Positions 1,255 through 26,753 of a stretch of DNA of 64,000 nt are shown one piece after another. This DNA is from Candidatus Shapirobacteria bacterium (GTDB taxonomy: Bacteria; Patescibacteriota; Microgenomatia; UBA12405): assembly GCA_022837635.1 (NCBI GenBank), contig JALHFY010000001.1:160136-224135 (forward strand), read 5' to 3'. Position numbers and translations under genes: made by a program. The stretch's first letter is position 1. Each line of letters begins with the position of its first letter. Under the pieces are notes generated by a model. It was given only the letters and a program-made list of their open reading frames with translations, made no database searches and was not told where the DNA came from.

Positions 1255-1287
1255 TGCGGATATTATACAAGTTTCAGTTCCTAATTT

Positions 1288-1743: not shown

Positions 1744-1801
1744 GTATTTTATTATAACACAATGTGTCTAATGATTACTTTATATAACAGGCTTGATTAT
1801 T

Positions 1802-3745
1802 CTAGTTGAGGGTGGTGATTTTTGGGTGATGGTTTTTGGGAAATTTGATATTGGGGTGTTGTTGGAGGAGTTGGTGATAGAGTTTTTGGGCGGTGGCGAT
1901 TTTAGTAGCAGAGGTAATGTCGGCCAGTTTAACTGAAGGAAAGCCATGCTGGAGAGTGGAAAAAACTTCACCTGGACCTCGGATTTTTAGGTCAAATTCG
2001 GCAATTTTGAAACCGTCGTGATGACGAACAAAGAAATTGAGGCGACGATTGATGGTTTCATTGTCTTCATCATTGAAGAGGTAACAATAACTTTGTTGAC
2101 TCCCCCGCCCGACTCGACCACGAAGTTGGTGAAGTTGAGAGAGGCCAAAACGTTGAGCAGATTGAATAATAATGGTGGTAGCATTGGGAAAATCAATACC
2201 AACTTCGATAATGGGAGTGGTGACTAAAATATGAATTTTGTTGGCGGCAAAATCTTTGAGAATTTTTTGTCGCTCTTCACTTTTAGTTTTGCCATGAATT
2301 AAGGCCAAATTTAGGTCGGGAAAGATTTTTTGAAGAGAACTATATTCTTTGGTGGCGGCTTTGATACTTTGCATACTTTCTGATTCTTCGATAAAGGGGC
2401 AGAGAATAAAGGCTTGAGTTTGGCGACTTTGAATATCTTGATTTAGCCAACGATAACAATCCCTGATTTTGTGTTGAGGCACTAAAAAACTTTTAATTGC
2501 TGGGCTTTTTCGAGGGATTTTTTCTAAGGTAGATAATTGCAAGTGGCCTAAAAGTGTCAGAGAAATGCTTCTAGGAATGGGAGTGGCTGAGAGGGTGAGA
2601 GTGTGAACAGAATCGTTTTCTTTCAAAAAAGCACGTTGTTTAACTCCGAATTTATGCTGCTCATCAATAATTAATAGTCCCAGATAAGGTAAAAGAGAGT
2701 CTTTCTTGAACAAAGCGGCATGAGTGGCAATAATAATGGAGTTTTTGGGGAGTTTTTTGGGTAATTGATGTTGATTGGTGAGTAAATAAACTGGATATTG
2801 GGGTAAAAATTTTTTGAAGGTAGTAAAATGTTGTTGAGCCAAAATAGAGGTGGGGGCCATTAGGAGCGTCTTTTTTTGATTTTTGGAAGTGAGGTGGGCA
2901 GCCAAGAGTGCCAAGATAGTTTTACCGGAGCCGACATCACCGGCCAAAAGTCGGTTCATACTTTGGGTAGGATTTAACAGATCGCTTTTAATTTCTTGCC
3001 AGGCTATTTTTTGACTGGGAGATAGGGAAAAAGGTAGAGATTTAATGAGGGCAGCGGAGGAATAATTTTTAAGAACAAAACGAGGTGGAGAAATGTTTTT
3101 TTGTTGGGAGAGAATAGTAAAATATTCGTCTAGTTCCAGTCTTTTTTTAGCGGCTTGGAGTTGATTGAGGTTTTGAGGAAAATGAATATTTTTGAGGGCA
3201 CTTTTAAGATCCAAAAGAGAATGTGCTTGTAAAAAGTCCTGTGGGAGTGGATCGCGGAGATTTTTAGTGAGATAGTCAAAATGGAGTTTCAAGTGTTTTC
3301 TGAACCAGGTACTGGTTAAGCCTTGAGTTTCCGGATAAATTGGCAGAATTTGATTAGTATTGAAGGGGCCGGAGAGAGGGTTGAAAATGGTGAGTTTGTT
3401 TTTATAAAGAGTGGGGGTGCCGGCAAAGGCAAAAGACTCCCCTACCCTAAATTTAGAAGAGAGATAGCTTTGATTAAAAAAGATAATGTCAATGGAGGCA
3501 GTGTGATCAGTGACAATTAATTTTTGCAGACTCTTGCCACCGCGAAGATAGAGATTTTTGAAATCGGCAACTTGGGCTTTGAAGGAATAATTTTGTCCGG
3601 GATTTAGTTTATTAATGGTGGAAATATGGGAAAAATCAATATAGCGATGAGGCAGATGATAGAGAAGATCGCGATCATGGTGGAGGTTGAGGCGAGAGAG
3701 TTTTTCTAGGGTTTTGGGTCCAAGGCCGGGAAGAGTAAAAGTCAT
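1802..3745 (-). CDS. recG: ATP-dependent DNA helicase RecG
   Basis: 647 aa; Walker A GDVGSGKT, DEQH box, helicase C-terminal motifs (QLRGRVGRG), N-terminal wedge-like domain. Confidence 0.85.
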   Translation of the reverse strand: MTFTLPGLGPKTLEKLSRLNLHHDRDLLYHLPHRYIDFSHISTINKLNPGQNYSFKAQVADFKNLYLRGGKSLQKLIVTDHTASIDIIFFNQSYLSSKFRVGESFAFAGTPTLYKNKLTIFNPLSGPFNTNQILPIYPETQGLTSTWFRKHLKLHFDYLTKNLRDPLPQDFLQAHSLLDLKSALKNIHFPQNLNQLQAAKKRLELDEYFTILSQQKNISPPRFVLKNYSSAALIKSLPFSLSPSQKIAWQEIKSDLLNPTQSMNRLLAGDVGSGKTILALLAAHLTSKNQKKTLLMAPTSILAQQHFTTFKKFLPQYPVYLLTNQHQLPKKLPKNSIIIATHAALFKKDSLLPYLGLLIIDEQHKFGVKQRAFLKENDSVHTLTLSATPIPRSISLTLLGHLQLSTLEKIPRKSPAIKSFLVPQHKIRDCYRWLNQDIQSRQTQAFILCPFIEESESMQSIKAATKEYSSLQKIFPDLNLALIHGKTKSEERQKILKDFAANKIHILVTTPIIEVGIDFPNATTIIIQSAQRFGLSQLHQLRGRVGRGSQQSYCYLFNDEDNETINRRLNFFVRHHDGFKIAEFDLKIRGPGEVFSTLQHGFPSVKLADITSATKIATAQKLYHQLLQQHPNIKFPKNHHPKITTLN

Positions 3746-3881
3746 GGCTTATGTTATCATTATTTATGCGTCTTTTTGGTAAAAAAATTAAGCGGAAGCA
3801 GTGGCAAAGAGTGTTGTTGGTTTTAGCTTCGGTGGGAATATTATTATCAACTTTTTTACCGATGTTAAGTGTGTTTATAAA

Positions 3882-6539
3882 ATGAAAAATTTTTGGGAAA
3901 AAATCAAGTACAAATTGGTGGTATTTTGGCGGAATTTGAAGGCAGCAGTGAGAAGCAAACAATTTTGGTACCGATTTTTTAAGGTCTTTTTAATCCTGAT
4001 GACTTTGGGAGTAATTTTGATAACGATTTTGTTTGCTTATTATTCAAAGGATTTACCGAGTCCAAATAATGTGGTTAGAAGGGAGGGTTTTTCCACTAGA
4101 ATTTATGACCGTAATGGCAAGGTACTTTATGATTTGTTTGCTGATGCCAAGAGACAACCGGTAACTATGGATCAAGTGCCGGAAACTTTGAAAAAAGCGA
4201 CGATTGCAGTTGAGGATAAAGATTTTTATAAACACCGAGGTTTCGATCCATTGACCCCTTTTAGAATTGTGAAAAATTTTTTCTATTTTAGAAAGTTGAC
4301 CGGTGGTTCGACTTTAACTCAGCAGTTAGTTAAGAATGTGTTGCTGACTCCAGAGGTAAGTATCACCAGAAAAATCAAAGAGTTTATTTTGGCGGTTCAA
4401 ATTGAAGCTAAATATAAGAAGGATGATATTTTATTGATGTATCTAAATGAAGCGCCTTATGGAGGCATGGCTTGGGGAGTAGGTTCTGCGGCAGAGCAGT
4501 ATTTTGATAAGTCGGTATCAGAATTGAATTTAGCAGAATCAGTAATTTTGGCCGGTTTACCGCAGCGCCCCAATGTTTATTCGCCATTTTCCAGTACCCC
4601 CAATGCTTATATCAGTCGGAGCGAACACGTGTTGCGACGGATGCAGGAGGATGGTTTTATTGATGAGGAGGTGCGAAAAAGCACTTTAGAAGAAATTAAG
4701 AATTATCAGTTTAGTGAAAACAGATCGTCGATTTCGGCACCCCATTTTGTGTTTTGGATTAAAGAGATTTTGTCGGAGAGATATGGTGAGGAGGTAGCTG
4801 AGGGTGGCGGATTAAAAGTGACTACTACTTTGGATTTGGAGTTACAAAATGAAGTGCAAAAGATTGTAGCTGAGGAAGTGGAGAAGGCGGAAAAACTCAA
4901 AATTACTAATGGTGCAGCGGTGGTAGTTGACCCCCGAGATGGACAGGTGTTGGCGATGGTCGGTTCACGGGGTTATAACAGTGACAAGACCTCAGGAGCT
5001 TTTAATGTAGTCACACAAGGTTTAAGACAGCCGGGTTCATCGATTAAACCAGTGACTTATTTAATGGGACTGAGAGAAGGCATGACGGCAGCTACTTTAT
5101 TAATGGATACGCCAGTTGCTTTTCCAATTCAAGGGAGTCGGGATTATACCCCCAGCAACTATACCGGTAAATTTTTAGGACCGATAAGTTTTCGGGATGC
5201 GTTGGGTAATTCTATTAACACCACGGCGGTGAAAGTGTTAGCTAAAGTAGGAGTGAAAAATTTTTTAACACAGGCTTATGAGATGGGTTTGAAAACTTTG
5301 GAACCGACAGCTGAGAATTTGAAACGTTTTGGATTGGCGGTGACCTTGGGAGGAGCTGAGGTGAGGATGATTGATATGGCTGGAGCTTACAGTGCTTTTG
5401 CTAATGGAGGCTTGAAAGTGGAACCAGTGGGGATTCTTAAAGTGGAAGATAAAAACGGCCGGGTGTTGGAAGAATTCCAACCGGTAAAAGGTAAAAAGGT
5501 GATGACAGAACAAGAAGCTTTTATTATTTCTAATATTTTGATGGACAATAATGCTCGAGCGATTACTTTTGGAGCTCGAAACAGTTTAGTAATTCCTAAT
5601 TATCAGGTGGCAGTGAAGACCGGAACTACCAATGAGAAAAAAGACAACTGGACAGTGGGATGGACACCAAATTTTCTCAGTGTGGTTTGGGTGGGAAATA
5701 ATGATAATACTGAAATGGGGACAATTGCTTCAGGTGTGTCGGGGGCGGCGCCAATTTGGCGACGGATAATGCTTTATGCTTTACCCAAGCGAGATAAACA
5801 AGACTTTCCTATTCCTGACAAAATTGTAAACATTAGTGTCGATAAGGTTTCTGGTTATCCCAGCCATGATGGTTTTGAGAGTAAAAATGAGTACTTTATT
5901 GACGGCACTCAAGCAAGTGTCGCCGATCCAATTCATCTGAAATTAAAGGTTTGTCGGGATAAATTTGGAATGGCTACTCCTGAAGATGTGGCAGGAGGTA
6001 ATTATGACGAAAAAGAATATTTTAATTTCAAGGAAAGCGATCCAGTGAGTCAAGATGGACGCAATCGTTGGCAAGAAGGCATTGATGCTTGGATTAATAC
6101 TTTACCAGATAAGAGTAAATATATAGTTCCCAGTGAATATTGTCGGAATGATGGTACAGTGGGAGTTAGTTTTGCTGAGCCTCAGGATAGACAGCAGGTA
6201 AATAATAAAAATGTTAAAGTGGTAATTAATACCAGTTCGGTAAAAAAGATTGTGGAAGTGAAATTATGGATTGACGGGACCCAGGTTAAAACTTGGACAG
6301 AAAGACCTTTTGAAGATCATTTCCAATTAAACGACGGAGTGCATACACTTAGAGTTAGAGCTGAAGATAGAGATGGAGGTAATGCTGACCGAGAAATTAA
6401 AATTGGAGTGAATGTACCCTGGGATTGGTCCCCGACTCCGACTAAAGCACTAGTAACCAATACTCCAACACTTCTGCTATCACCAACAAAGCCAATATCG
6501 CCGACAGTGGGGGTAACAGCAACACCAACAGGGATTTAG
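3882..6539 (+). CDS. Class A penicillin-binding protein (transglycosylase/transpeptidase) with C-terminal extension domain and PT-rich tail
   Basis: GT51 motifs EDKDFYKHRGFD and GGSTLTQQL; transpeptidase SxxK (GSSIKP), KTGTT; start chosen at MKNFWEKIKYK (ATG 3882) preceding TM helix; the ORF-track start at 3801 is probably too far upstream. Confidence 0.85.
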   Translation: MKNFWEKIKYKLVVFWRNLKAAVRSKQFWYRFFKVFLILMTLGVILITILFAYYSKDLPSPNNVVRREGFSTRIYDRNGKVLYDLFADAKRQPVTMDQVPETLKKATIAVEDKDFYKHRGFDPLTPFRIVKNFFYFRKLTGGSTLTQQLVKNVLLTPEVSITRKIKEFILAVQIEAKYKKDDILLMYLNEAPYGGMAWGVGSAAEQYFDKSVSELNLAESVILAGLPQRPNVYSPFSSTPNAYISRSEHVLRRMQEDGFIDEEVRKSTLEEIKNYQFSENRSSISAPHFVFWIKEILSERYGEEVAEGGGLKVTTTLDLELQNEVQKIVAEEVEKAEKLKITNGAAVVVDPRDGQVLAMVGSRGYNSDKTSGAFNVVTQGLRQPGSSIKPVTYLMGLREGMTAATLLMDTPVAFPIQGSRDYTPSNYTGKFLGPISFRDALGNSINTTAVKVLAKVGVKNFLTQAYEMGLKTLEPTAENLKRFGLAVTLGGAEVRMIDMAGAYSAFANGGLKVEPVGILKVEDKNGRVLEEFQPVKGKKVMTEQEAFIISNILMDNNARAITFGARNSLVIPNYQVAVKTGTTNEKKDNWTVGWTPNFLSVVWVGNNDNTEMGTIASGVSGAAPIWRRIMLYALPKRDKQDFPIPDKIVNISVDKVSGYPSHDGFESKNEYFIDGTQASVADPIHLKLKVCRDKFGMATPEDVAGGNYDEKEYFNFKESDPVSQDGRNRWQEGIDAWINTLPDKSKYIVPSEYCRNDGTVGVSFAEPQDRQQVNNKNVKVVINTSSVKKIVEVKLWIDGTQVKTWTERPFEDHFQLNDGVHTLRVRAEDRDGGNADREIKIGVNVPWDWSPTPTKALVTNTPTLLLSPTKPISPTVGVTATPTGI

Positions 6540-8358: not shown

Positions 8359-9363
8359 TTATTTATAAGGTAAATAAGAGAGGTTTCCACCCATAAGAGT
8401 GCGAATGTCTTGAATATTATTTTGGGCCATGGTCCAACGATCAAGGCCCATACCAAAGGCAAAACCATTCCATTTTTTAGGATCGATACCGGCTTTTTTC
8501 AAAACATTGGGGTGAATCATACCGGAACCACCCATTTCAATCCAACCGGCAAATTTACAAAGTGGACAACCTTGGCCGTGACAACTAAAACATTGCATAT
8601 CAGGACCAATACCTGGTTCCACTTCGGGATAATATTTAGCGCGGTAACGAACAATAACTTTGGATCCGTAAAGGGTCTTGAACATTAAATCCATGGTCCC
8701 GATAAGGTCTTTTAAGGTAACATTTTTATCAACGACGACGGCTTGATATTGACGAAAGGCAAAGTGATTACTGCGATTAACTTTTTCATTGCGGTAAACG
8801 GTACCAGCAAAAGCAGCTCGAAGAGGTAAGGATTTTTTTGCCGTTTCTAAAAGATAACTTTCGATGGTGGAAGTTTGGGTGCGTAAGAGATATTTAGGTT
8901 CTTGGATATAGAGAGTATCTTGCATGTCTCGAGCAGGATGATCGGCGGGAACATTAAGACGATCGAAGTTGTAATCGTCAGTGACAATATCGGGAGCTTC
9001 GTAGAGGGAAAAGCCTAATTTTTGAAAAAGTTGATTGAGTTGGCGTTCAGTTTGGGTTAAGGGGTGGAGATGTCCAACTTTTGCTAAAGTGGCAGCGAGT
9101 AAACTTGTTTTAGGCGAGGTAGGGGTGTTTATAGGAGAGTCTTTAATTTTATGAGATTCGATTAAAGATTCAACTGCTTGTTTGAAAGCGTTTAACTCTT
9201 GACCAAAACTTTTAGGATCGGGATGATTTTTTATTTGTGAAAAAAGAGAATTGACTATCCCCTGTCGGCCTAAGTATTCAATTCGGACTGATTTTAACTC
9301 AGTTTGATTAGCGACTAAATTTAATTTATCTTTAAGTTTTTGTAAAAGTTTTTTGAGGTCCAT
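8359..9363 (-). CDS. pheS: Phenylalanine--tRNA ligase alpha subunit
   Basis: Class II aaRS motifs (FRPSYFPFTEPS-like YPEVEPG, GWIEMGGSGMIHPNVL, GFAFGMGLDRW); start set at MDLKKLL (ATG 9363) by alignment to E. coli PheS N-terminus; the ORF-track TTG at 9384 lies inside the terminator T-run. Confidence 0.85.
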   Translation of the reverse strand: MDLKKLLQKLKDKLNLVANQTELKSVRIEYLGRQGIVNSLFSQIKNHPDPKSFGQELNAFKQAVESLIESHKIKDSPINTPTSPKTSLLAATLAKVGHLHPLTQTERQLNQLFQKLGFSLYEAPDIVTDDYNFDRLNVPADHPARDMQDTLYIQEPKYLLRTQTSTIESYLLETAKKSLPLRAAFAGTVYRNEKVNRSNHFAFRQYQAVVVDKNVTLKDLIGTMDLMFKTLYGSKVIVRYRAKYYPEVEPGIGPDMQCFSCHGQGCPLCKFAGWIEMGGSGMIHPNVLKKAGIDPKKWNGFAFGMGLDRWTMAQNNIQDIRTLMGGNLSYLPYK

Positions 9364-9375
9364 TGCTTTACCTAT

Positions 9376-9406
9376 TATAAACAAAAACCTCCCGTGTTGC
9401 GGGAGG
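9376..9406 (-). terminator. Intrinsic terminator / attenuator-like hairpin between rplT and pheS
   Basis: Minus-strand transcript: CCUCCCG-CAACA-CGGGAGG followed by UUUUUGUUUAU; upstream GCGGGAG (9422-9428) can alternatively pair with the 5' arm. Confidence 0.5.
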
Positions 9407-9434
9407 AATTATTGAAAAATGAGACATCTCCCGC

Positions 9435-9776
9435 CTATTTGAGGGACTCGAAGATGCTTTTAAAGGTGCCAGGATCTTTAATGGCAATTTCGGAGAGCAT
9501 TTTACGATTGAGTTCGACTTGATTGTCTTTCAGTTTTTTGATGAAAGCGGAATAACTGATATCAAAAGGGCGAAGAGCAGCATTAATTCTAACTATCCAG
9601 AGTTTCCTGATATCACGACGACGGAGACGGCGACCGATGTAAGCATATTGGCCGGCGTGAAGTACAGCTTCAGAGGCAACTTTATAACGCTTGCTTCTGG
9701 TCATCCAATAACCTTTAGCGCGTTTAAGCAGTTTTTTGTGAGCTTGGCGACGAACAGTGCCGGTTTTGATTCTCAT
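9435..9776 (-). CDS. rplT: 50S ribosomal protein L20
   Basis: 113 aa, MRIKTGTVRRQAHKKLLKRAKGY... typical bL20. Confidence 0.9.
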   Translation of the reverse strand: MRIKTGTVRRQAHKKLLKRAKGYWMTRSKRYKVASEAVLHAGQYAYIGRRLRRRDIRKLWIVRINAALRPFDISYSAFIKKLKDNQVELNRKMLSEIAIKDPGTFKSIFESLK

Positions 9777-9825
9777 ATAGTTAAATAGTTAGATGAGTAG
9801 ATAATTAGTAAATAGTTATTAATGA
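9777..9825. repeat. AT-rich TAG/TAA-rich spacer related to the TAGATAA repeat family
   Basis: tagttaaatagttagatgagtagataattagtaaatagttattaatg between rpmI and rplT. Confidence 0.3.
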
Positions 9826-10035
9826 TTATTTTTTGCCAAGGAGTTTTTTAACTCTGGTAGCCAAACGACCGGTGACCAGTTTTTTACCTTTAAGTCGGCG
9901 GAGTTGTTTTTTTGATTTTTTGCGACGTAAATGGCGGTTGAAAGCAGATTGACGGAGGACCTTGCCATTTTTAGTCACCGTAAAGCGACTACTGACTGAT
10001 TTTTTGACACGGTGTTTTTTACTCATTTTTTCCAT
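9826..10035 (-). CDS. rpmI: 50S ribosomal protein L35
   Basis: Start moved to MEKMSKKHRVKKSV... (matches MPKMKTK... of bL35); basic 69 aa protein; the ORF-track N-terminal extension is unlikely. Confidence 0.8.
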   Translation of the reverse strand: MEKMSKKHRVKKSVSSRFTVTKNGKVLRQSAFNRHLRRKKSKKQLRRLKGKKLVTGRLATRVKKLLGKK

Positions 10036-10036
10036 A

Positions 10037-10558
10037 TTATTTATGTTTTTTGATAGGGGTAAAAGTGATAAAAAGTCTTTTACCAACAAGTTTGGCCTCT
10101 CCTTCGGGATTACCAACTTCAACTAAATCGTTTTTATACTTTTCGATTAGCTGATAGCCAAATTCAGGTTTTTGAATTTGACGGCCTAGGAATTTTATAC
10201 TTAATTTGACTTTATTTCCAGTAGTTAAATATTCTTTGGTCTTTTTAACTCTGGTTTCATAGTCAGCATCACCGATAAAAGGAGTCATTTGAATTTCTTT
10301 AGTGTCGCCGCCTTTGATACCTTTTTTCTCAGCTTTAGCTTTTTTAGCTTCTTGGTACTTGAATTTAGAAAATTCAATCAGTTTAACTACTGGTGGTTTG
10401 GCATTACCATTGATCTCGACTAAATCTAGACCACTTTCTTGAGCTTGATGAAAAGCTTCGTTTAAGGAAACAATACCGATTTGTTTACCATCTTCGGAAA
10501 GTAAGCGAATTTCCGGGGCAGTAATTTGCCGATTGATTTTGTAAAATTTTTGAGCCAT
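10037..10558 (-). CDS. infC: Translation initiation factor IF-3
   Basis: 173 aa; INRQITAPEIRLLSEDGKQIGIV, conserved IF3 N- and C-domains; classic position between thrS and rpmI. Confidence 0.85.
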   Translation of the reverse strand: MAQKFYKINRQITAPEIRLLSEDGKQIGIVSLNEAFHQAQESGLDLVEINGNAKPPVVKLIEFSKFKYQEAKKAKAEKKGIKGGDTKEIQMTPFIGDADYETRVKKTKEYLTTGNKVKLSIKFLGRQIQKPEFGYQLIEKYKNDLVEVGNPEGEAKLVGKRLFITFTPIKKHK

Positions 10559-10563
10559 GTACT

Positions 10564-12363
10564 TTATTTTATCAAAGTCAGAGACTTGCTTTCAATTTGT
10601 GCCTTGATTTGGGATAAAAATTTATCAAAATCCATAGCGCCAAGGTCTTGTTCATCACGTTGGCGAACAGAGACTTGATGGTTGTCAACTTCTCGAGCAC
10701 CGATAATGAGCATGTAGGGAATTTTTTCCAATTGAGCATCGCGAATTTTAGCTTGCATTTTTTCAGAGCGGTCATCAATTTCAACTCGAATCCCCTCCTC
10801 TAAAAGTTGAGTCTTTAATTGCTGAGCATATTCGTGTTGAGCATCAGTAATAGGAATAAGCTTAACTTGGACCGGAGCAATCCAAAGCGGGAAAGCACCG
10901 GCAAAATGCTCGATAAGGATACCAATAAATCTTTCTAGGGAGCCATAAATGACACGATGGATAACCACGGGAGTTTGCTCTTTGCCATCCTTATCGGTAT
11001 ATTTTAATTTGAAGTTTTTAGGAAGTTGGAAATCGAGCTGGACAGTGCCAGTTTGCCATTGACGACCGAGACAATCATTCATGAGAATATCCAACTTGGG
11101 ACCATAAAAAGCGCCTTCGCCTTCACCGATAAAATAGTCAAATTTATTGTCTTTAAGGATTTTTTCTAATGCTGCTTCGGCTTTGTTCCAAGTATTAACA
11201 TCACCCATAAAATCTGCAGGTCGGGTACCGAGACGAATTTTGAATTTTAATCCAAAGATGGAATAAAACAGATCGGCAATGTCCAAAATTCTTTTATATT
11301 CATCGGCAATCTGATCTTCAGTGACGAAAATATGAGCGTCGTCTTGACTGAATTCTTGAACACGTAAAAGTCCGCTCATTTGACCAGATTTTTCGTGACG
11401 ATGAAGAGTGTCACAATCGGATAGACGCAAGGGTAAATCACGATAACTGTGAATACCTTGTTTGAAAATAGTCATGGCATTGGGACAATTCATCGGTTTG
11501 AGACAGAAAATACCTTCATCACCCATATCAGCGATAAACATGTTTTCACGATAATGTTCCCAATGACCGGAGGTTTCGTAAAGAGCTTTTTTATTAAGGA
11601 GTGGAGTTCTGGTTTCCAAATAACCACGTTTACTGTGTTCTTGGCGCCAGAAATTTAAAAGCTCATTAATAATAACGGTGCCTTTGGGGAGCCAGTAAGG
11701 CATGCCGGGGGCAGTTTCGTCCAGAAAATATAAACCTAACTGTGGACCTAATTTTCGATTATCTCGTTTTTTAGCTTCTTCAATTAAATTGAGATATTCA
11801 TCCAATTCTTTTTGACTGTTAAAAGCGGTGCCATAAATGCGGGTAAGCATTTTATTTTTTTCATCACCATGCCAATAAGCACCGGCAATAGAGAGAAGCT
11901 TAAAAGCTTTGATGTCACCGGTATGGTCAAGATGTGGTCCGGCGCAAAGGTCAACAAAATTATCGCCGGTGTAATAAACAGAGATAATCTCTCCCCTATC
12001 AGTAATCGAATTAAGCCATTCCATTTTATAAGGATTATCGGCAAAGAGTTTTTTAGCTTCATCCAGAGTTAATTCTTTCCTAACTATAGGTAAATTTTTC
12101 TGGATAATTTTTTTCATCTCGGCTTCGATTTTAGGAAAATCAGCTTCAGAGATTTTGAGGTCGCCTAAAGGTTCAAAATCGAAGTAAAAGCCCTCATCAG
12201 TGGCTGGACCCATGGCCATATAAAATTTATCGATACCATAGAGATTTTGCATAGCCTCGGTGAGAACATGCTCGGCGCTATGGCGCATTTTGAAAAGTTG
12301 ATCGTCTAAATGTTTTTGAGCCTCTATTTGTGACATATAAGGATTATAGAATAAATACGGCAA
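10564..12363 (-). CDS. thrS: Threonine--tRNA ligase (short form lacking N-terminal TGS region)
   Basis: 599 aa; class II motifs, ThrRS editing/catalytic core (HRDLPLRLSDCDTLHRHE, FYGPKLD), anticodon-binding C-terminus. Confidence 0.85.
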   Translation of the reverse strand: MPYLFYNPYMSQIEAQKHLDDQLFKMRHSAEHVLTEAMQNLYGIDKFYMAMGPATDEGFYFDFEPLGDLKISEADFPKIEAEMKKIIQKNLPIVRKELTLDEAKKLFADNPYKMEWLNSITDRGEIISVYYTGDNFVDLCAGPHLDHTGDIKAFKLLSIAGAYWHGDEKNKMLTRIYGTAFNSQKELDEYLNLIEEAKKRDNRKLGPQLGLYFLDETAPGMPYWLPKGTVIINELLNFWRQEHSKRGYLETRTPLLNKKALYETSGHWEHYRENMFIADMGDEGIFCLKPMNCPNAMTIFKQGIHSYRDLPLRLSDCDTLHRHEKSGQMSGLLRVQEFSQDDAHIFVTEDQIADEYKRILDIADLFYSIFGLKFKIRLGTRPADFMGDVNTWNKAEAALEKILKDNKFDYFIGEGEGAFYGPKLDILMNDCLGRQWQTGTVQLDFQLPKNFKLKYTDKDGKEQTPVVIHRVIYGSLERFIGILIEHFAGAFPLWIAPVQVKLIPITDAQHEYAQQLKTQLLEEGIRVEIDDRSEKMQAKIRDAQLEKIPYMLIIGAREVDNHQVSVRQRDEQDLGAMDFDKFLSQIKAQIESKSLTLIK

Positions 12364-12403
12364 AAATTCAGCCTAAAAGAATAAATTTTGTTAAGATTAA
12401 AGA

Positions 12404-13816
12404 GTGAGAAAAAAAACTTGGTGGATATTGGTTGTTATTTTATTGTTAGGGATAGGGTTGAGATTGAGAAATTGGAATTTGGGGCCGATAGATGCTCATC
12501 CAATGCGACAGACTGATGTGGAATGTGTGGCATATTTTATGGCACAAGGTGAGGCTTCCCTGCTCTACCCCAAGGCGTGTCTGATGCGACCGGTAACTAA
12601 TACTGAGGGGTATTTTTTCCTAGAGTTTCCGGTCTATGAGGCATTAATTGCTCTGGGTTATAAAATTTTTGGGGTAAAAACGGTCATATTTAGAGTTATC
12701 AATATATGTTTGTATTTGATAGCCAGTGGTGGTTTATATATTTTTGTGAAAAAAATCTGGAATGAAAAAATGGCTTTGGCGAGCGTGTTTCTATTGGCGA
12801 CGGCTCCAGGAGCAATATTTTTTATCGGACATGCTTTGCATCCGGATGTGTTGGCCGTGGCGATGATGATGGTCAGTTTGGCGATATTAAGAGTGAGGAC
12901 CAGAAGTAATTTAGGTAAATTATTGAGTGGAGTATGTTTAGGTTTAAGTGTGGCCACCAGACCTTTTGGATTGATTGTACTGCCAGTTTATATTTACTTT
13001 TTATTAAAGGATAAAAGTAAATGGTGGCAATGGTTATTAATATTGGTGCCGGGGATGGGAATTTATGGATTATGGCGGTGGTGGATCTGGAAAAGTGGAA
13101 TTAGTGCCGATTGGGAAAACTGGGTATTGTCAGGGAGGGAAAAATTTTTTGATTTGAATTATTTAAGGATTTTGATTTGGAAAAATATTTCAGGAGAGGT
13201 AGTGGGGAGGGTAATTACTATTTTGGCGGGGGTGGGATTATTGATAGTAATCATTAAAAAAGAGAAAAAAATGTGGCCGATATTATGGTGGCTTTTTGGG
13301 ATACCGATTTATTGGTACGTGGCTTTTGAGGGTAATTTAATTCATCAGTACTATGCGGATATTTATTTGGTACCGATTTTGATACTGGCTGCTTATGCTT
13401 TGGTATTTATTTGGAATAAATCAAAGATTTTAGCCTTAGTGATGGGATTATTAGTCATTTATAATGGCTATCGGACCAGTGATTATTTTTTTAAGGATGT
13501 AGTTTATCAAGTCAAATTGAAATATGCTGCGGAGATTAGGGAAAATATCGCTTCAGGTAAAAAGATAATTTATATGGTTAAAAGTGATCCGGTGACTTTG
13601 TCATTGTCTCATCGACAGGGATGGATGTTGGGAGAGTGGCCTACCGATGTGGCCCCGACAATCTGGGCTTTTATGGAAATGAAGCATACGGATTTTGATT
13701 ATATTGTGGAGCCAAAAGAAAGTATGGATATGAAAAGAGAAGACGTGGCGATTATTGAAGAGCATTTTCCATTATGGAAAGAAACGGAGAGTTTAAGAAT
13801 CTTGATAAAACCTTAA
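12404..13816 (+). CDS. Polytopic membrane protein, GT-C fold glycosyltransferase (ArnT/PMT family-39-like)
   Basis: 470 aa, ~11 predicted TM helices, N-terminal R/D/E-containing first loop typical of GT39/GT83-type enzymes; no named motifs seen, and hydrophobicity profile only estimated by eye. Confidence 0.4.
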   Translation: MRKKTWWILVVILLLGIGLRLRNWNLGPIDAHPMRQTDVECVAYFMAQGEASLLYPKACLMRPVTNTEGYFFLEFPVYEALIALGYKIFGVKTVIFRVINICLYLIASGGLYIFVKKIWNEKMALASVFLLATAPGAIFFIGHALHPDVLAVAMMMVSLAILRVRTRSNLGKLLSGVCLGLSVATRPFGLIVLPVYIYFLLKDKSKWWQWLLILVPGMGIYGLWRWWIWKSGISADWENWVLSGREKFFDLNYLRILIWKNISGEVVGRVITILAGVGLLIVIIKKEKKMWPILWWLFGIPIYWYVAFEGNLIHQYYADIYLVPILILAAYALVFIWNKSKILALVMGLLVIYNGYRTSDYFFKDVVYQVKLKYAAEIRENIASGKKIIYMVKSDPVTLSLSHRQGWMLGEWPTDVAPTIWAFMEMKHTDFDYIVEPKESMDMKREDVAIIEEHFPLWKETESLRILIKP

Positions 13817-13828
13817 CTTTTTATTGAC

Positions 13829-13862
13829 TTTTATTCAGTTTTAAGGTATTTTAGGCCTAAAT
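13829..13862 (+). promoter_or_regulatory. Candidate sigma70-like promoter upstream of FGE-like gene
   Basis: TTGACT - 17 nt - TATTTT. Confidence 0.3.
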
Positions 13863-13873
13863 TAGATAGAACT

Positions 13874-14614
13874 ATGTATAGAAATATTGAATGGTTGTCA
13901 GAAGTATGGGTAGATATTCCAAAAAAGAAAGAATTGTTGAATAGAATGGATTTTATTTTTGTTTCTGGGGGAGATGTGGTTTTAGGAACCAGAAATCCAT
14001 TACCTGGTGGTGTTGAGGGTTATAGACATAATGAAACACCAGTTCACACTGCAACAGTTGATTCTTTTTGGATTTGTAAATTTAAAGTGGTAAATAAAGA
14101 TTTTGAATTTTTTTTCCCGAAACATAAGAGATCTTTGCATGCACTTTTAGACGATCATCCGGTGGTTGATGTTACTTACAATGAAGCAATGGAGTATTGT
14201 AAAAGATTAAATGAAGTAACAGGAATGGCTTTTCGTCTTCCTACTGAGCTTGAGTGGATGTATGCCGCCGCACCTTATGGTTGGGAATATCCTCACGGAC
14301 AAGATCCAGATATTAATGCTGGACATGTTTTTAATGATGGACATGAATTTGGTTGTGCCCCGGTTGGAGATAATAGATGGAGTCTTAATTATTTAGGATT
14401 AGACCAATTTGGTTATAATGTGATTGAGATGACACAAGGAACTTATGGGATACTTGGAACTAATGGATTTGACTCTGATGGAACTTATTGTATTGCCAAA
14501 GGTGGATCATGGGGTAAATGTAAGTTTTCGCCGGGAATTCATCGTCGACGTGTGTTTGATGTGATAGATCGGAATCCTCGTGTAGGGTTTAGATTGGCAC
14601 ATCCAAAAATATGA
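13874..14614 (+). CDS. FGE-sulfatase / SUMF1-family domain protein (DUF323)
   Basis: 246 aa; FIFVSGGDVVLG, TYNEAMEYCKRL, FRLPTELEWMYAA, KGGSWG, RVGFRLA motifs typical of formylglycine-generating-enzyme fold; AT-rich relative to flanks. Confidence 0.7.
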   Translation: MYRNIEWLSEVWVDIPKKKELLNRMDFIFVSGGDVVLGTRNPLPGGVEGYRHNETPVHTATVDSFWICKFKVVNKDFEFFFPKHKRSLHALLDDHPVVDVTYNEAMEYCKRLNEVTGMAFRLPTELEWMYAAAPYGWEYPHGQDPDINAGHVFNDGHEFGCAPVGDNRWSLNYLGLDQFGYNVIEMTQGTYGILGTNGFDSDGTYCIAKGGSWGKCKFSPGIHRRRVFDVIDRNPRVGFRLAHPKI

Positions 14615-15480
14615 TTAAAATTATCAAGACTGGTAATCATAGAACTATAAGGGGAGCTTTTAGTGTAGAAGGACCAACACCTTATGTACATAATCATACA
14701 ACTAAGATGACAGTTCGTTCAGCCAAATCTGGATTTAGGTTTATTATTGGAGAGGAAGAAATAAAAGTTAATGGTGCTAATACAAAATTTACCAATGGGA
14801 TACATGCTACTTATTTGACTAATAATAAAGGTCAGGATGTGAGATTGACGGAGCATATTTTATCGGCATTGTCTGGTATGGGAGCAACTGCTGCTGATAT
14901 TTATTTGGAAGGAAGTAATCAGGTTCCAGTACCTGACCGTACAGCGCAAATATTTTGCAAGGAAATTAAACGAGTGGGACTGAAGGATACTACAAAATCA
15001 TTGTTATCAGTTAAGGTGATGAAGGATATTTATTTTACTGATAATTTAGGATCATTTGTTGTTATGCGTCCAAGTGATACCACTAAGATTTCGGCATTAA
15101 TACAATTTTCTCATTTATTTGAGGATCAGTATATAAAATTAGAATTATCTCCGGAAAATTACTGGAACGAAGTAATGTGGGCGAGACCATTTATAAGAAT
15201 TGATTGTGCTACAAACGATGATTATCTGGATGCAATTAAGTTATTGAAAGCTTTTCCTAAAAAAATGGAAGATGCACCAGCAATGGTGAGAAGTAATGGT
15301 GTATGGATTACAGGCATTAAACCCTTAGAACCTGTTCGTCACAAGGTGTTGGATATTATTGGAGATTTGGCAACTTTGGGTTTTCCAATCATAGCAGATA
15401 TGAGTTTTGTTAGACCAGGACATGAATTTCATAGAAAATTAATCAAGTACTTATGGAAATTGATTAGTATGAAACAGTGA
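14611..15480 (+). CDS. LpxC-family (UDP-3-O-acyl-N-acetylglucosamine deacetylase-like) zinc deacetylase
   Basis: 289 aa; MIKIIKTG start like E. coli MIKQRTLK; TEHILSALSGMG (EHLNAALAGLG), VPVPDRTAQIF (IPIMDGSAAPF), RHKVLDIIGDL (RHKMLDAIGDL), RPGHEFHRKL (SGHALNNKL); ATGA overlap with upstream gene. Confidence 0.7.
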   Translation: MIKIIKTGNHRTIRGAFSVEGPTPYVHNHTTKMTVRSAKSGFRFIIGEEEIKVNGANTKFTNGIHATYLTNNKGQDVRLTEHILSALSGMGATAADIYLEGSNQVPVPDRTAQIFCKEIKRVGLKDTTKSLLSVKVMKDIYFTDNLGSFVVMRPSDTTKISALIQFSHLFEDQYIKLELSPENYWNEVMWARPFIRIDCATNDDYLDAIKLLKAFPKKMEDAPAMVRSNGVWITGIKPLEPVRHKVLDIIGDLATLGFPIIADMSFVRPGHEFHRKLIKYLWKLISMKQ

Positions 15481-15552
15481 GTCTAAGAGGACTTGAACCT
15501 CTGACCTCTTCAATGTCAATGAAGCGCTCTAAACCAACTGAGCTATAGACTC
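15478..15552 (-). tRNA. tRNA-Val(GAC)
   Basis: Cloverleaf by eye: acceptor GAGTCTA/TAGACTC, anticodon loop TTGACAT, T-loop TTCAAGT; discriminator overlaps the TGA stop of the LpxC-like gene. Confidence 0.8.
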
Positions 15553-16985: not shown

Positions 16986-17612
16986 ATGGAAAAAAGATTT
17001 GTTAAATATGCTCGGATTTTTTTTATAAGCCTGTTAGGGGTGTTATTGTTGGTGATTGGAGTAATTGAGGCGTGGGTGTTTACTGATGGTTTTAAAGAAA
17101 AGGTTGAGGTGGGTGGTAAATTTGGCAATTTAAAGACGGTGGTGATAGGTGTTGAGGAAACATTAGAGGATAAACAAGAGGTAAAAATGAAGGGAGAGAT
17201 TGTGGCTGAGGCTGATGCTAGACCGATAATAGTGGAGAGATATCTAAAGCGTTATAGGTCTCCTTTAGCTCCTTATGCGAAAAAGATAGTAGAGTTGTCG
17301 GATAGGTATGGTTTTGATTATTATTGGATGGTGGCGATTGCTCAACAGGAATCGAATTTATGCAAAAAAGCACCAGAAGACTCGCATAATTGCTGGGGAT
17401 ATGGAATTCACAGTCAAGGGACTTTGAAATTTGAGAATTATGATTTGGCTTTGGAGTCCTATGCTCAGTACCTAAAGAGTCAATATTTTGATAAAGGCTT
17501 AAATACCGCCGAATTGATGATGCAAAAATACTGTCCTCATTCCAATGGCTCTTGGGCTAGAGGGGTGAATCAGTTTATTGGTGATATGGAGAGTGGTAAG
17601 AGAATTAATTAG
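16986..17612 (+). CDS. Membrane-anchored putative peptidoglycan hydrolase (lysozyme-like fold)
   Basis: N-terminal TM; AIAQQESNL resembles catalytic E-S of SLT/GH73-type muramidases. Confidence 0.3.
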   Translation: MEKRFVKYARIFFISLLGVLLLVIGVIEAWVFTDGFKEKVEVGGKFGNLKTVVIGVEETLEDKQEVKMKGEIVAEADARPIIVERYLKRYRSPLAPYAKKIVELSDRYGFDYYWMVAIAQQESNLCKKAPEDSHNCWGYGIHSQGTLKFENYDLALESYAQYLKSQYFDKGLNTAELMMQKYCPHSNGSWARGVNQFIGDMESGKRIN

Positions 17613-19409: not shown

Positions 19410-19432
19410 ACTAAAATAGTGTAGCAAAAAAG

Positions 19433-19513
19433 TGCCGCTGAGAGGACTCGGACCTCCACGGGTTTCCCCATACGCTCCTAAAGCGTACGTGTATACCAAT
19501 TTCACCACAGCGG
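19433..19513 (-). tRNA. tRNA-Leu(TAG)
   Basis: Type II tRNA, acceptor GCCGCTG/CAGCGGC, anticodon loop TTTAGGA, long variable arm. Confidence 0.8.
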
Positions 19514-19584
19514 CTCAAAGCTACAGTGACTTGGGTCTATTTTATCAATAATTTGATAAAATAACGAAGCCTGTCCTTATCATT

Positions 19585-19636
19585 GGGTTGGATAGAGCGG
19601 TCCGATGTTCATCGGACAGGTCGTGGCTCGATTACA
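19585..19636 (+). repeat. Degenerate tRNA-Arg-derived repeat, copy 1 (no acceptor 5' strand)
   Basis: ggttggatagagcggtccgatgttcatcggacaggtcgtggctcgattaca; identical to copy 2 over ~50 nt. Confidence 0.5.
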
Positions 19637-19643
19637 ATTTGAT

Positions 19644-19700
19644 TAGCTCAGCTGGATAGAGCGGTCCGATGTTCATCGGACAGGTCGTGGCTCGATTACA
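19644..19700 (+). pseudogene. tRNA-like pseudogene, copy 2 (tRNA-Arg D-arm retained, anticodon/T arms diverged, no acceptor pairing)
   Basis: tagctcagctggatagagcg + gtccgatgttcatcggac + aggtcgtggctcgattaca vs intact tRNA-Arg tagctcagctggatagagcg...aggtcgttggttcgattcca. Confidence 0.5.
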
Positions 19701-19712
19701 GTCTGAGTTTCT

Positions 19713-19789
19713 GTCCCCATAGCTCAGCTGGATAGAGCGCCTCCCTTCTAAGGAGGAGGTCGTTGGTTCGATTCCAACTGGGGATACCA
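19713..19789 (+). tRNA. tRNA-Arg(TCT), CCA encoded
   Basis: Acceptor GTCCCCA/TGGGGAT (G1-U72), anticodon loop CTTCTAA, T-loop TTCGATT. Confidence 0.8.
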
Positions 19790-19792
19790 GGG

Positions 19793-19864
19793 GCGCCCAT
19801 AGCTCAATGGATAGAGTACTAGTCTTCGGAACTAGTGATGGGGGTTCGATTCCCTCTGGGCGTA
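19793..19864 (+). tRNA. tRNA-Arg(TCG)
   Basis: Anticodon stem CTAGT/ACTAG with loop CTTCGGA. Confidence 0.8.
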
Positions 19865-19875
19865 CTTGACAATTT

Positions 19876-19947
19876 GGGTCCTTAGCTCAGTGGTAGAGCA
19901 GTCGCCTCTTAAGCGATTGGTCGCGAGTCCGAATCTCGCAGGACCCA
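19876..19947 (+). tRNA. tRNA-Lys(CTT)
   Basis: Acceptor GGGTCCT/AGGACCC, anticodon loop CTCTTAA. Confidence 0.85.
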
Positions 19948-19970
19948 CAATATATATGTTATATTTAGTT

Positions 19971-25425: not shown

Positions 25426-26511
25426 TTATAACTGAGAGTAGGTGTGACGGAGAGTTTCCATTAACTTTGAATAAAAACGAAGATTGTGGATAGTAGATAA
25501 ACGTAAAGCTGACATTTCTTTGATGCGGAAAAGGTGGGCCAAATAAGAACGGGAGTATTTTTGACATAAAAGACAATCACAAAATTCAGATACAGGACGA
25601 GGATCACGATAGTAAATATTTTTGTCGGGAACAAAGTATTCATAATCACTATAATCTTTGTTTTTGGTTATATAGAGACGTTTATGACGAGCATCACGAG
25701 TGGGTAGAACACAGTCAAAAATATTCCAACCTATTTTAACCAGATTTTCAATTTCATGAGGTTTACCGATACCTAAAGCGTAGAGAAAATAATTTTTGGG
25801 GGTATATTGGGCAATGACTTTGGCGACATCGTAGTTAAAAGTACCATCATTTTTCAGAGGCCAGCCACCATAACCCAGGCCGTCAAAGCCAATTTTGACC
25901 AGCTCTTGGGTGCAATATTGGCGCAGGTCAAGATATGGACCACCTTGAACAACACCCAAAAGATAGGGAGTTTCTTTTTTGGTCAGTTTCTTTTGTTTGA
26001 CTAATTGATTAAAAATTGTTTTACATTCCTGGGCCCATTGGAGGGTTCTCTTGACACTGATTTTGGCTTCATCGTAGGTGCTTTTGGGGTCGGTAAAATC
26101 ATCGAGAACAACGACCATGTCAGTTTTTAATTCTAGTTGAAGCTTGATGGACATTTCCGGAGTAAAGAGGATTTTTTTACTATCAAGTTTAAAAGTAACG
26201 CCTTTATCGGTGACTGAGTTTTTACCACCCAGACTTTTAGCCAGTGACATAACTTGAAAACCGCCAGAATCGGAGATGACTCCCCCACTCCAATTCATGT
26301 AGTTTCTAATTCCCTTAAAAAGTTTAATCACAGCAGTCCCGGGACTGTTATAGAGATGAAAAGTATTAACTAAAATACCTAAAGTATGGGTATTTTTTAT
26401 ATCTTCGGAGTCCAGAGTTTTGAGAACAGCTCGAGTGGCGTCAGGGAAAAATATAGGTAGAGGAATTTTTTGGCCGGTGATGGTTTTGAAAAATTGGGGA
26501 CGATTGGTCAT
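25426..26511 (-). CDS. tgt: Queuine tRNA-ribosyltransferase
   Basis: Start moved to MTNRPQF (ORF-track N-terminus runs over tRNA-Pro); TGT core VVQGG, GYGGWPL, zinc site CDCLLCQKYSRSYLAHL. Confidence 0.8.
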   Translation of the reverse strand: MTNRPQFFKTITGQKIPLPIFFPDATRAVLKTLDSEDIKNTHTLGILVNTFHLYNSPGTAVIKLFKGIRNYMNWSGGVISDSGGFQVMSLAKSLGGKNSVTDKGVTFKLDSKKILFTPEMSIKLQLELKTDMVVVLDDFTDPKSTYDEAKISVKRTLQWAQECKTIFNQLVKQKKLTKKETPYLLGVVQGGPYLDLRQYCTQELVKIGFDGLGYGGWPLKNDGTFNYDVAKVIAQYTPKNYFLYALGIGKPHEIENLVKIGWNIFDCVLPTRDARHKRLYITKNKDYSDYEYFVPDKNIYYRDPRPVSEFCDCLLCQKYSRSYLAHLFRIKEMSALRLSTIHNLRFYSKLMETLRHTYSQL

Positions 26512-26522
26512 AGAATGAAGAG

Positions 26523-26596
26523 TCGGGGATACAGGATTCGAACCTGCAACCTCATGGTCCCAAACCATGCACGCTAGCCAATTGCGCCAATCCCCG
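26523..26596 (-). tRNA. tRNA-Pro(TGG)
   Basis: Acceptor CGGGGAT/ATCCCCG, anticodon stem CATGG/CCATG loop TTTGGGA. Confidence 0.8.
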
Positions 26597-26668
26597 CCTT
26601 TGTCCCGTAGCGACGGGACTTTGGCGGGTAAACCCGCATTAGCTAGTGCCCGAAGCATACGGAAAGGG

Positions 26669-26753
26669 TGCCGCTGGCGGGACTTGAACCCACACGCTTG
26701 TTGAGAGCACAAGATTTTAAGTCTTGCGTGTATACCGATTTCACCACAGCGGC
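26669..26753 (-). tRNA. tRNA-Leu(TAA)
   Basis: Type II, acceptor GCCGCTG/CAGCGGC, anticodon loop CTTAAAA. Confidence 0.8.

Follow-up and report, generated by a model that had tools for sequence, protein, structure and literature searches.

Introduction

LpxC, the zinc-dependent deacetylase of UDP-3-O-acyl-N-acetylglucosamine (UDP-3-O-acyl-GlcNAc; UDP, uridine diphosphate), performs the committed step of lipid A synthesis. It is held to be specific to lipid A, a marker of diderm envelopes with lipopolysaccharide (LPS), and a target of antibiotics. The FGE-sulfatase fold is known from SUMF1-type FGE, from EgtB and OvoA, and from the non-FGE members ToxD, pFGE/SUMF2 and PvdO. Here we describe a locus in which a gene for an FGE-fold protein overlaps a gene for a non-canonical relative of LpxC (Table 1). 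It lies in a stretch of 64,000 nucleotides from a Candidatus Shapirobacteria bacterium, contig JALHFY010000001.1, which is referred to as the window. We consider it probable that the two genes encode a translationally coupled module, composed of an FGE-fold protein and an LpxC-fold zinc hydrolase most likely acting as one complex, whose role is not in lipid A synthesis.

Both folds are already known; what is new is their obligate pairing or fusion, the altered substrate elements of the LpxC-like protein, and the presence of the pair in phages and in organisms that have no outer membrane. Full-text literature searches found no description of an FGE/LpxC pairing or of LpxC relatives outside lipid A synthesis, and neither PADLOC nor PHROGs holds a model for the pair. 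A search of PADLOC-DB v2 (2023 library) returned no match at E<=0.01 for the two proteins or for the GT-C glycosyltransferase encoded upstream of them in the window. An earlier interpretation made from the letters of the window alone (the sequence-only reading) had joined the pair with this glycosyltransferase and an adjacent tRNA-Val gene into a low-GC module; its remark that the pairing is not a described system agrees with the searchable literature.

A conserved FGE–LpxC gene pair

The three open reading frames (ORFs) recognized by the sequence-only reading are present on the plus strand with all the motifs it quoted from their translations, and a Pfam search bears out its family assignments: PMT_2 for the glycosyltransferase (4.8e-10; 40.3 bits versus a gathering score, GA, of 26.1), FGE-sulfatase for the second protein (8.1e-29; 101.5 bits versus GA 23.3, residues 26-242) and LpxC for the third (1.4e-38; 133.4 bits versus GA 27, residues 11-282), the last two over their full length. 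The ATGA overlap that it reported between the FGE and LpxC-like genes is also real. Genomic contexts of related pairs were gathered from the LpxC-like side, from the FGE side, and by a DNA pattern scan specific for the clade. About 12 of the 120 loci listed by the metagenome pattern scan were informative, most of the listed loci being rumen canonical LpxC with K-P-x-H-x-F. The scan of genome contigs with the clade alignment was dominated by canonical LpxC, because the peptide EPVRHK[ILV]LD is common to canonical enzymes, and gained one clade locus (L012).

Among the matches listed, the LpxC-like gene is preceded by an FGE-clade gene of the same strand in all 16 clade loci with sufficient flank (the window, L001, L003, L005, L007, L009, L010 with two pairs, L012, L096/L101, L098, L110, L123, L130, L151 and L213); the flanks of L100, L120, L153, L167 and L207 are too short to judge pairing. 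The adjacency noticed in the window is thus recurrent, in every resolvable clade locus and in fusions besides. When the spacing was measured in 13 pairs of clade 1, nine were found to overlap by 1-53 nt, one to be separated by 1 nt, and three to lie apart, in L130 and L151 by an M15-like gene and in the phage-like L005 by four small ORFs.

The genes around the pair differ wholly from locus to locus. The pair of L001, a Shapirobacteria locus with 74% identity, is flanked by nusB and recG and stands directly beside a recG-PBP1a-pheTS block that in the window is found 5-10 kb off. A GT-C gene upstream of the pair is restricted to the near-identical contigs L092-L095. These changing neighbours around a constant pair imply that the pair moves as a unit, with the GT-C and tRNA genes outside it.

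The same contexts bear on the proposal of the sequence-only reading, a GT-C–FGE–LpxC surface-glycan system inserted at a tRNA. In the window and its near-identical relatives all three genes point the same way, with spacings of 57 nt and -4 nt, and glycosyltransferase genes occur within a few kb of the pair in L007, L009 and L010. However, no other pair locus has the GT-C gene, not even that of the next Shapirobacteria relative, L001, and a promoter-like site lies between it and the FGE gene. The tRNA gene is convergent and its adjacency is not conserved, L001 having recG downstream instead, and the composition of the region is ordinary. GT-C enzymes work at the external side of the membrane, whereas the FGE-fold and LpxC-like proteins appear cytoplasmic. 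Such a three-gene system is accordingly very improbable, and neither the GT-C gene nor the tRNA can be kept as a member of the module. The N-deacetylation of a surface glycan or glycolipid, as had been suggested, is reduced to one possibility among others by the apparent cytoplasmic location of both proteins and by a recurrent M15 partner that points elsewhere.

Two natural fusions, P0160 (612 aa) and P0202 (608 aa), consist of an N-terminal FGE-clade domain (124-126 bits) followed by an LpxC-like domain, so that the domain order equals the gene order; the catalytic motifs are all intact in both. P0160 is encoded on contig L227 by one ORF, for which the precomputed Pfam hits show both domains. 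Together with the conserved translational coupling, the fusions argue strongly for a physical cooperation of the two proteins, and it is because some organisms encode both as a single fused protein that action as one complex is proposed.

An exhaustive search of 1.84 billion cluster representatives with the clade profile yielded a continuum of LpxC-like proteins; when hidden Markov models (HMMs) of the clade and of canonical LpxC were compared, 83 of the top 147 representatives scored higher with the clade model. The closer subfamily is well delimited on both sides of the pair, with 24 clusters of LpxC-like proteins at E<=1e-41 before a jump to canonical LpxC at 1e-13, and 28 clusters of FGE-fold proteins at E<=1e-49 before a gap to 1e-25. 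The pair is therefore rare, amounting to ~24-28 clusters at 90% identity among 5.8 billion proteins. We define the proposed family by an FGE-clade gene that is adjacent to, or fused with, a non-canonical LpxC gene carrying [RK]-P-x-H-x-F, an arrangement that is found in the window.

Active site and substrate elements of the LpxC-like protein

The LpxC-like protein scores far below the models that define lpxC. It reaches 72.2 bits with the NCBIfam equivalog TIGR00325 (cut-off 187.25), and 76 bits against 423 and 88 against 465 with the remaining lpxC models. The AlphaFold2 (AF2) model has a predicted local distance difference test (pLDDT) value of 96, and its Foldseek matches are LpxC structures only, with TM-scores of 0.78-0.82; the relatives found are LpxC of Aquifex, Pseudomonas and Escherichia coli at 20-26% identity. 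Structure prediction thus returns the LpxC fold that had been expected from the motifs.

Residues E81, H82, H244, D248, D252 and H271 are invariant in alignments of 17 and 28 sequences and in all non-canonical groups, as is K245. By alignment, E81/H82/H244/K245/D248/D252/H271 correspond to E78/H79/H238/K239/D242/D246/H265 of E. coli LpxC, so that all zinc ligands and the catalytic Glu and His are kept. A data-driven comparison of 25 clade sequences with 66 canonical ones, with E. coli LpxC as the reference, shows that H79, H238, D242, E78, H265, D246, K239, F161, F192 and R190 (E. coli numbering) are common to both groups. One published study of LpxC names F192 and D197 as UDP-pocket residues.

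By contrast, several elements that are at least 91% conserved in the 66 canonical sequences are altered in the clade, namely the GxGLHxG motif (G17-L18-H19-x-G21), E100, D-G106-S107, T191 and G205/G209. The window protein has T23, P24, Y25, Q104, R110, T111, P193, A214 and K218 at these positions. G205 and G209, both replaced in the clade, sit in the insert (insert II) that builds the acyl-chain tunnel, and the equivalent of T191 is Ser (or Thr) in most clade members and Pro in the lineage of the window. The clade has acquired invariant residues of its own (H65, P216, P223, P269 and F273). All non-canonical groups carry the signature [RK]-P-x-H-x-F, which reads R268-P-G-H-E-F273 in the window and whose canonical counterpart is K-[SAG]-G-H-x-L. 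A large rumen and gut metagenome lineage of canonical LpxC (within L107-L226) also has K-P-x-H-x-F, and the motif alone therefore does not separate non-canonical from canonical proteins. A crude neighbour-joining (NJ) tree gathers the canonical enzymes in one clade, to which none of the non-canonical groups belongs.

With the catalytic set preserved and the substrate elements replaced, zinc-dependent amide hydrolysis is very likely retained, and the substrate, at least in its 3-O-acyl part, is likely to differ from that of canonical LpxC.

Relation to lipid A synthesis

The closest named homologs of the LpxC-like protein come from metagenome-assembled genomes of Candidatus Shapirobacteria, and the NCBI pipeline labels one of its homologs, P0006, a UDP-3-O-acyl-GlcNAc deacetylase. 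This label, the full-length Pfam match and the intact active site would all fit an ordinary LpxC that commits precursors, possibly scavenged ones, to LPS or a lipid A-like glycolipid, and a member of a distant clade does overlap a true lpxD gene in L229. The score of 72 bits against the 187-bit equivalog cut-off, the loss of the His19 motif and of the tunnel glycines, and the position outside the canonical clade argue against it. A tblastn search with E. coli LpxA, LpxD, FabZ and LpxB gave no hit in 18 clade loci (240 kb, including the 64-kb window), whereas 79 canonical lpxC loci searched in the same way were positive for lpxA in 57 cases, lpxD in 57, fabZ in 61 and lpxB in 42.

The window belongs to a small genome of the Candidate Phyla Radiation (CPR) type with peptidoglycan machinery. 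Cells of this group have neither an outer membrane nor fatty-acid synthesis, according to cryo-electron microscopy and genomics (PMC7906910), and other copies of the pair are carried by phages. On account of the sub-cut-off score, the altered elements, the absence of lpx neighbours in the 240 kb of loci, the CPR envelope and the phage copies, ordinary lipid A synthesis by the pair is very unlikely. The idea is largely refuted and is the least probable of those weighed here, and the sequence-only reading was right to set the genes apart from lipid A.

The FGE-fold partner

By profile and by fold, the nearest solved relatives of the FGE-fold protein are the non-FGE members ToxD (7spq), pFGE/SUMF2 (1y4j) and PvdO (5hha). 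The family alignment has 31 invariant positions, many of them charged, including the single Cys216 in the segment GGSWGKC, and has Gly, Pro or Ser five residues past C216. We take C216 to lie at about the position of C336 of human FGE, and the Gly/Pro/Ser where C341 would be; the PDB profile alignments did not cover the C216 segment. The two copper-binding catalytic cysteines of SUMF1-type FGE, one of the options raised by the sequence-only reading, are therefore not found, the segment having one Cys only. Another option, an EgtB/OvoA-type enzyme, fares no better: the protein consists of the FGE domain without a DinB iron domain, and scores 31 bits with TIGR03440 (cut-off 360) and 26 with the OvoA model (cut-off 400).

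The calcium-site-type motif G-L-x-x-M-G-x-N-V-x-E is kept. The FGE-fold protein has a hydropathy maximum of 0.96 and neither a signal peptide nor a transmembrane (TM) segment, and the LpxC-like protein likewise lacks both by hydropathy, so that the two should be cytoplasmic. In each of 14 pairs compared, the FGE partner is better conserved than the LpxC-like one.

Recurrent companion genes

The commonest companion of the pair is one subfamily of M15 peptidases (Pfam VanY 5e-8, Peptidase_M15 1.4e-9), whose best NCBIfam models are VanXY and VanX and which in the PDB comes closest to the VanXYg structure 4f78. It has the motifs SGYR...Q, H-x-T-G-x-A-x-D-x-E (H-x-T-G-A-A-x-D-x-E) and E-Y-W-H. Among the matches listed, the M15 gene lies between the FGE and LpxC-like genes in L130 and L151, and directly downstream of the pair in L009 and L012. 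It is directly upstream of the LpxC-like gene in L155 and L207, contigs that end before any FGE gene, and stands beside the distant-clade LpxC-like gene of L229 (247 bits versus its own HMM). The recurrence of a D-Ala-D-Ala-type M15 peptidase points to peptidoglycan precursors rather than to a glycan made by the GT-C enzyme.

Other companions are more scattered. A NAGPA-like protein of ~400 aa (a weak match, below the gathering score) is encoded ahead of the FGE gene in L010 and L123; the two homologs share 35% identity, and the L010 copy has 394 aa. Genes for membrane-anchored NUDIX proteins abut the pair in L098 and L007, and FemAB and DegT genes lie upstream of it in L098. M15, NAGPA-like, NUDIX and FemAB/DegT companions are all lacking in the window. 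NUDIX was also considered as an obligatory partner and rejected, the gene being adjacent in L098 and L007, nearby in L100, a fragment in L003 and absent from the window.

Phage copies and the distant clade

Locus L096 and the viral contig L101 of IMG/VR share 99.9% identity, and the pair of L096 is surrounded by genes for Erf, DNA methylases, HNH nucleases and an M23 peptidase. Locus L005, from an 84-kb contig, is phage-like as well and encodes YopX, a Cas4-like exonuclease and a phosphoesterase. The phage copies nest inside the clade in the NJ tree; among GenBank phages, no close homolog of either protein was found. The pair is rare, patchy and mobile, occurring in Ca. Shapirobacteria, in other genomes with a similar context, and on at least two phage-like contigs, the mobility following from the phage-borne copies and the patchy distribution. 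The sequence-only reading had thought of a possible horizontal acquisition next to a tRNA, and neither composition nor the tRNA argues for it: GC and tetranucleotide composition is ordinary, and integration at a tRNA is ruled out by the absence of that adjacency in L001.

Two further observations were made on these contigs. The 10-kb contig L010 has, at 284-6085, two divergent FGE–LpxC pairs in opposite orientation with a GT1 glycosyltransferase gene between them; one pair is preceded by the NAGPA-like gene, and PIN_3, AAA_14/DUF4143 and MerR/HTH_17 genes lie in the vicinity. A 208-aa ORF of the window (16986-17612, plus strand), with an N-terminal TM segment, the motif AIAQQESNLC and no Pfam hit, resembles a 221-aa protein of L096 (9694-10359; 23% identity, 1.4e-9) encoded ~200 nt downstream of the pair. 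It may be a wall-lytic or wall-remodelling enzyme shared by host and phage.

A distant clade of LpxC-like proteins, with 27-30% identity to the window protein, is found in the diderm lineages Planctomycetes, Aminicenantes, Nitrosomonas and Balneolaceae. Some of its loci (L166, L149) have the reversed order, an LpxC-like gene followed by an FGE-like one, and others are islands with restriction-modification genes, Gabija-like genes and recombinases. The 5.1-Mb genome of L229 has a tight operon at 9149-12002, in which a VanY/M15-like gene, the distant LpxC-like gene and lpxD follow one another; the surrounding island encodes a type I restriction-modification system, an OLD-family ATPase and a UvrD helicase (Gabija-like), a TrwB-like coupling protein and a serine recombinase. 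L144 encodes, at 2578-3888 beside its distant LpxC-like gene, a PqqD-domain protein of the radical-SAM/SPASM type, and the cluster of L130 an MvdD-type ATP-grasp protein (12399-13343). Both are components typical of the biosynthesis of ribosomally synthesized and post-translationally modified peptides (RiPPs).

These settings invite two other explanations of the pair. The first is a conflict system, serving anti-phage defence, superinfection exclusion or a phage counter-measure, in which the FGE-fold protein would be a sensor and the LpxC-like protein an effector that, on infection, destroys an essential UDP-sugar or wall precursor. The rare and patchy distribution, the two phage-borne copies, the duplicated pair of L010 with its PIN_3, AAA_14/DUF4143 and MerR/HTH_17 neighbours, and a PIN toxin near L003 are in keeping with it, as are the restriction-modification, Gabija-like and recombinase genes around the distant-clade L229. 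L166 adjoins a putative DNA methylase (a 400-aa downstream ORF, judged by eye), L144 lies near a radical-SAM protein (Pfam) and, by eye, an MNT-type nucleotidyltransferase antitoxin, and FGE+TIR fusions (P0083, P0089) were met among remote FGE hits. However, PADLOC has no match for the three window proteins, no NTPase or other typical sensor-switch component is present, and the Shapirobacteria pair resides among housekeeping genes and remains linked to the recG-PBP1a-pheST block across 74% identity. The stronger conservation of the FGE-fold protein, with its many invariant charged residues, fits an enzyme or a fixed interface better than a fast-evolving sensor, and we consider a conflict system unlikely.

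The second explanation dispenses with the sugar. The FGE fold would bind a peptide, and the LpxC-like protein would cleave an amide in a ribosomal or non-ribosomal peptide, as in RiPP-type tailoring or leader removal. Members of the FGE family typically bind peptides or amino-acid-derived molecules, the nearest being ToxD, PvdO and pFGE; besides the maturase-like gene of L144 and the ATP-grasp of L130, radical SAM genes occur within ~5 kb of the pair in L007 and L009. On the other hand, K239, F161, F192 and R190 of the E. coli sugar-nucleotide pocket are retained, no precursor-peptide gene was seen, and the radical SAM and ATP-grasp genes do not recur, whereas neighbours of the M15, NUDIX and glycosyltransferase kinds speak for sugar or wall metabolism. 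A peptide-directed amidase thus appears quite improbable, more so than a conflict system.

Proposed function

In the reading that we favour, a coupled FGE–LpxC module outside lipid A synthesis, the LpxC-like subunit would hydrolyse the N-acyl (probably N-acetyl) amide of a cytoplasmic envelope precursor of the sugar-nucleotide type. The FGE-fold subunit, better conserved than its partner although it has neither the Cys pair of FGE nor the iron domain of EgtB, would provide substrate recognition or a second chemical step. As the substrate we tentatively prefer a peptidoglycan precursor such as the UDP-N-acetylmuramic acid (UDP-MurNAc) peptide, an assignment by analogy that is possible and still rather doubtful. 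MurNAc is a 3-O-substituted GlcNAc, like the natural substrate of LpxC, and the lactyl-peptide would stand in for the acyl chain and extend as far as the FGE fold, which binds peptides. The preference is based on this likeness, on the peptide-binding FGE fold and on the M15 peptidase as the commonest third partner. The result would be an edited cell-wall precursor, and with it an accessory trait resembling lysogenic conversion or resistance.

A more specific version, which we put forward with due reserve, is a mobile cassette with a VanX/VanY-like companion that would N-deacylate the MurNAc of UDP-MurNAc-peptide while the FGE fold holds on to the stem peptide. In this way CPR bacteria and their phages could change the wall chemistry, either to resist lysozymes or lysins and alter receptors, or to shut down wall synthesis upon infection.

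Several observations weigh against parts of this proposal. The physical complex is predicted from the gene overlaps and fusions, and the substrate from fold analogy and gene neighbourhood. No M15 gene is found within the 64 kb of the window, that is, in its own lineage, and the NUDIX neighbours in L098 and L007 and the NAGPA-like ones in L010 and L123 suggest other sugar-phosphate substrates. The phage pairs have genes of replication and recombination around them, a setting also compatible with a role related to nucleotides or DNA. The distant-clade LpxC-like gene of L229 overlaps a bona fide lpxD (TIGR01853, 328 bits versus a cut-off of 242.5), and at least the L229-type distant clade may still handle substrates of the UDP-3-O-acyl-GlcNAc type. 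The Pro at the oxyanion Thr191 position, as read from the alignment, could reduce activity in the lineage of the window, and the AF2 model of the FGE-fold protein is poor in its C-terminal half (pLDDT 69).

Phages and organisms that lack an outer membrane thus carry LpxC relatives, a broad group whose active site is intact. This has a practical side, as the automatic label UDP-3-O-acyl-GlcNAc deacetylase on such relatives can mislead the inference of envelope type from genomes. The fixed FGE-fold partnership, including the fusions, amounts to a two-protein system that can be cloned, from which a new substrate of the LpxC fold and a new role of the FGE fold could be discovered. A peptidoglycan-precursor substrate, if true, would add an unknown layer to CPR wall chemistry and a new envelope-modifying function carried by phages.

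The locus in the window

The features of the locus are collected in Table 1. The GT-C protein is polytopic, with at least seven TM-like segments by hydropathy. The promoter of the TTGACT/TATTTT type that the sequence-only reading had placed ahead of the module exists as a site, and its place is between the GT-C stop and the FGE start, which sets the GT-C gene apart from the pair; the position would suit an FGE–LpxC transcription unit of its own, distinct from GT-C. The region has no excess of such sites, with 8 found versus 13.8 expected in shuffled sequences. The tRNA-Val(GAC) gene abuts the LpxC-like gene as described, its 3' end overlapping the TGA stop at 15478-15480, and is convergent with it on the opposite strand, so that a co-directional module ending on the tRNA is not formed.

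Table 1. Position and nature of the features at the FGE–LpxC locus
Feature	Position in the window	Strand	Remarks
GT-C/PMT_2 membrane glycosyltransferase	12404-13816	+	470 aa; adjacent gene, outside conserved module
Promoter-like site TTGACT-17-TATTTT	13824-13852	+	Consensus scan, 9/12 matches; weak evidence
FGE-fold (FGE-sulfatase domain) protein	13874-14614	+	246 aa; Pfam PF03781
ATGA stop/start overlap of FGE gene and LpxC-like gene	14611-14614	+	Direct sequence reading
Non-canonical LpxC-fold zinc amidase, predicted catalytic subunit	14611-15480	+	289 aa; Pfam PF03331
tRNA-Val(GAC)	15477-15552	-	ARAGORN and sequence; neighbour only

The description as a low-GC module is not upheld by composition. 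The GC content of the three-gene region is 0.366 versus 0.378 for the window, the 26th percentile of windows of the same length, and that of the FGE and LpxC-like genes is 0.355, the 12th percentile; the tetranucleotide distance of the region, at the 91st-94th percentile, is unremarkable. The lowest GC in the window is reached at 53-56 kb (0.27-0.32 versus the mean of 0.378). A surface-glycan cluster of Wzy_C O-antigen ligase/polymerase-like, GT2 and GT1 genes is found at 52375-55242 on the minus strand, beside an ORF with Ig-like (Big_6/Big_13) and Glucodextran_B domains (51663-52400) and a 762-aa alpha/beta-hydrolase (55219-57507).

The window further encodes RecG, a class A penicillin-binding protein, PheST, ThrRS, trigger factor, EF-P, a SEDS protein and 20 tRNAs. 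The tRNA genes lie mostly in two clusters (19432-19948 and 26522-28244) and use both strands, and the ORF lister calls a TGT (queuine tRNA-ribosyltransferase) gene at 25426-26712 that runs into the beginning of the second cluster. The GC skew is positive in each 1-kb bin of the window, so that the cumulative curve climbs steadily, though most long ORFs are on the minus strand.

Comparison with known systems

The LpxC-like protein shares with LpxC (PF03331/TIGR00325) the two-domain fold (TM-score 0.8), the zinc ligands H79/H238/D242, E78, H265/D246, K239, F161, F192 and R190, and presumably the hydrolysis of an amide by a zinc-bound water. It differs in its low identity (20-27%) and score below the equivalog cut-off, and in the replacement of G17/H19/G21, E100, G106-S107, G205 and G209, with Ser or Pro for T191. 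It also differs in its obligate FGE-fold partner, in the absence of lpxA/D/B neighbours and in its hosts, which are organisms without an outer membrane and phages.

A precedent for LpxC joined to a functionally linked enzyme exists in the LpxC–FabZ fusion proteins (PF03331 and PF07977; bioRxiv 10.1101/2025.10.16.682753) of Bacteroidota, Omnitrophota and the PVC group, examples of which were seen among our remote LpxC hits (P0027-P0030). In these the partner, an enzyme of fatty-acid and lipid A metabolism, stands at the C-terminus, whereas that of P0160 and P0202 is N-terminal and of the FGE fold. With the FGE/SUMF1 family, in particular ToxD, pFGE/SUMF2 and PvdO, the FGE-fold protein has the full-length FGE-sulfatase domain and the calcium-site-type motif in common. 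Unlike FGE it is without the second catalytic Cys, unlike EgtB and OvoA without the DinB iron domain, and unlike FGE, pFGE and PvdO without a signal peptide; it is, moreover, always paired or fused with an LpxC-like protein.

The chemistry proposed here, metal-dependent removal of N-acetyl groups from substrates of the GlcNAc/MurNAc type, is that of PgdA/PdaA (CE4), NagA and MshB/BshB (LmbE family). The folds of these enzymes are unrelated to LpxC, and the CE4 enzymes work extracellularly on polymerized peptidoglycan. None of them is known to have an FGE-fold partner.

With VanX/VanXY and the van cassettes the comparison runs through the M15 companion, which shares their motifs and cytoplasmic location and is part of a small mobile cassette. 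It scores far below the VanX/VanXY equivalog cut-offs, no VanH or VanA ligase was seen, and the M15 gene is missing from the window. The pair with its M15 companion may nevertheless be likened to van precursor reprogramming. If the precursor-editing cassette proves true, it would contain the first LpxC-fold enzyme outside lipid A synthesis and represent a novel way of reprogramming precursors that bears comparison with the van system.

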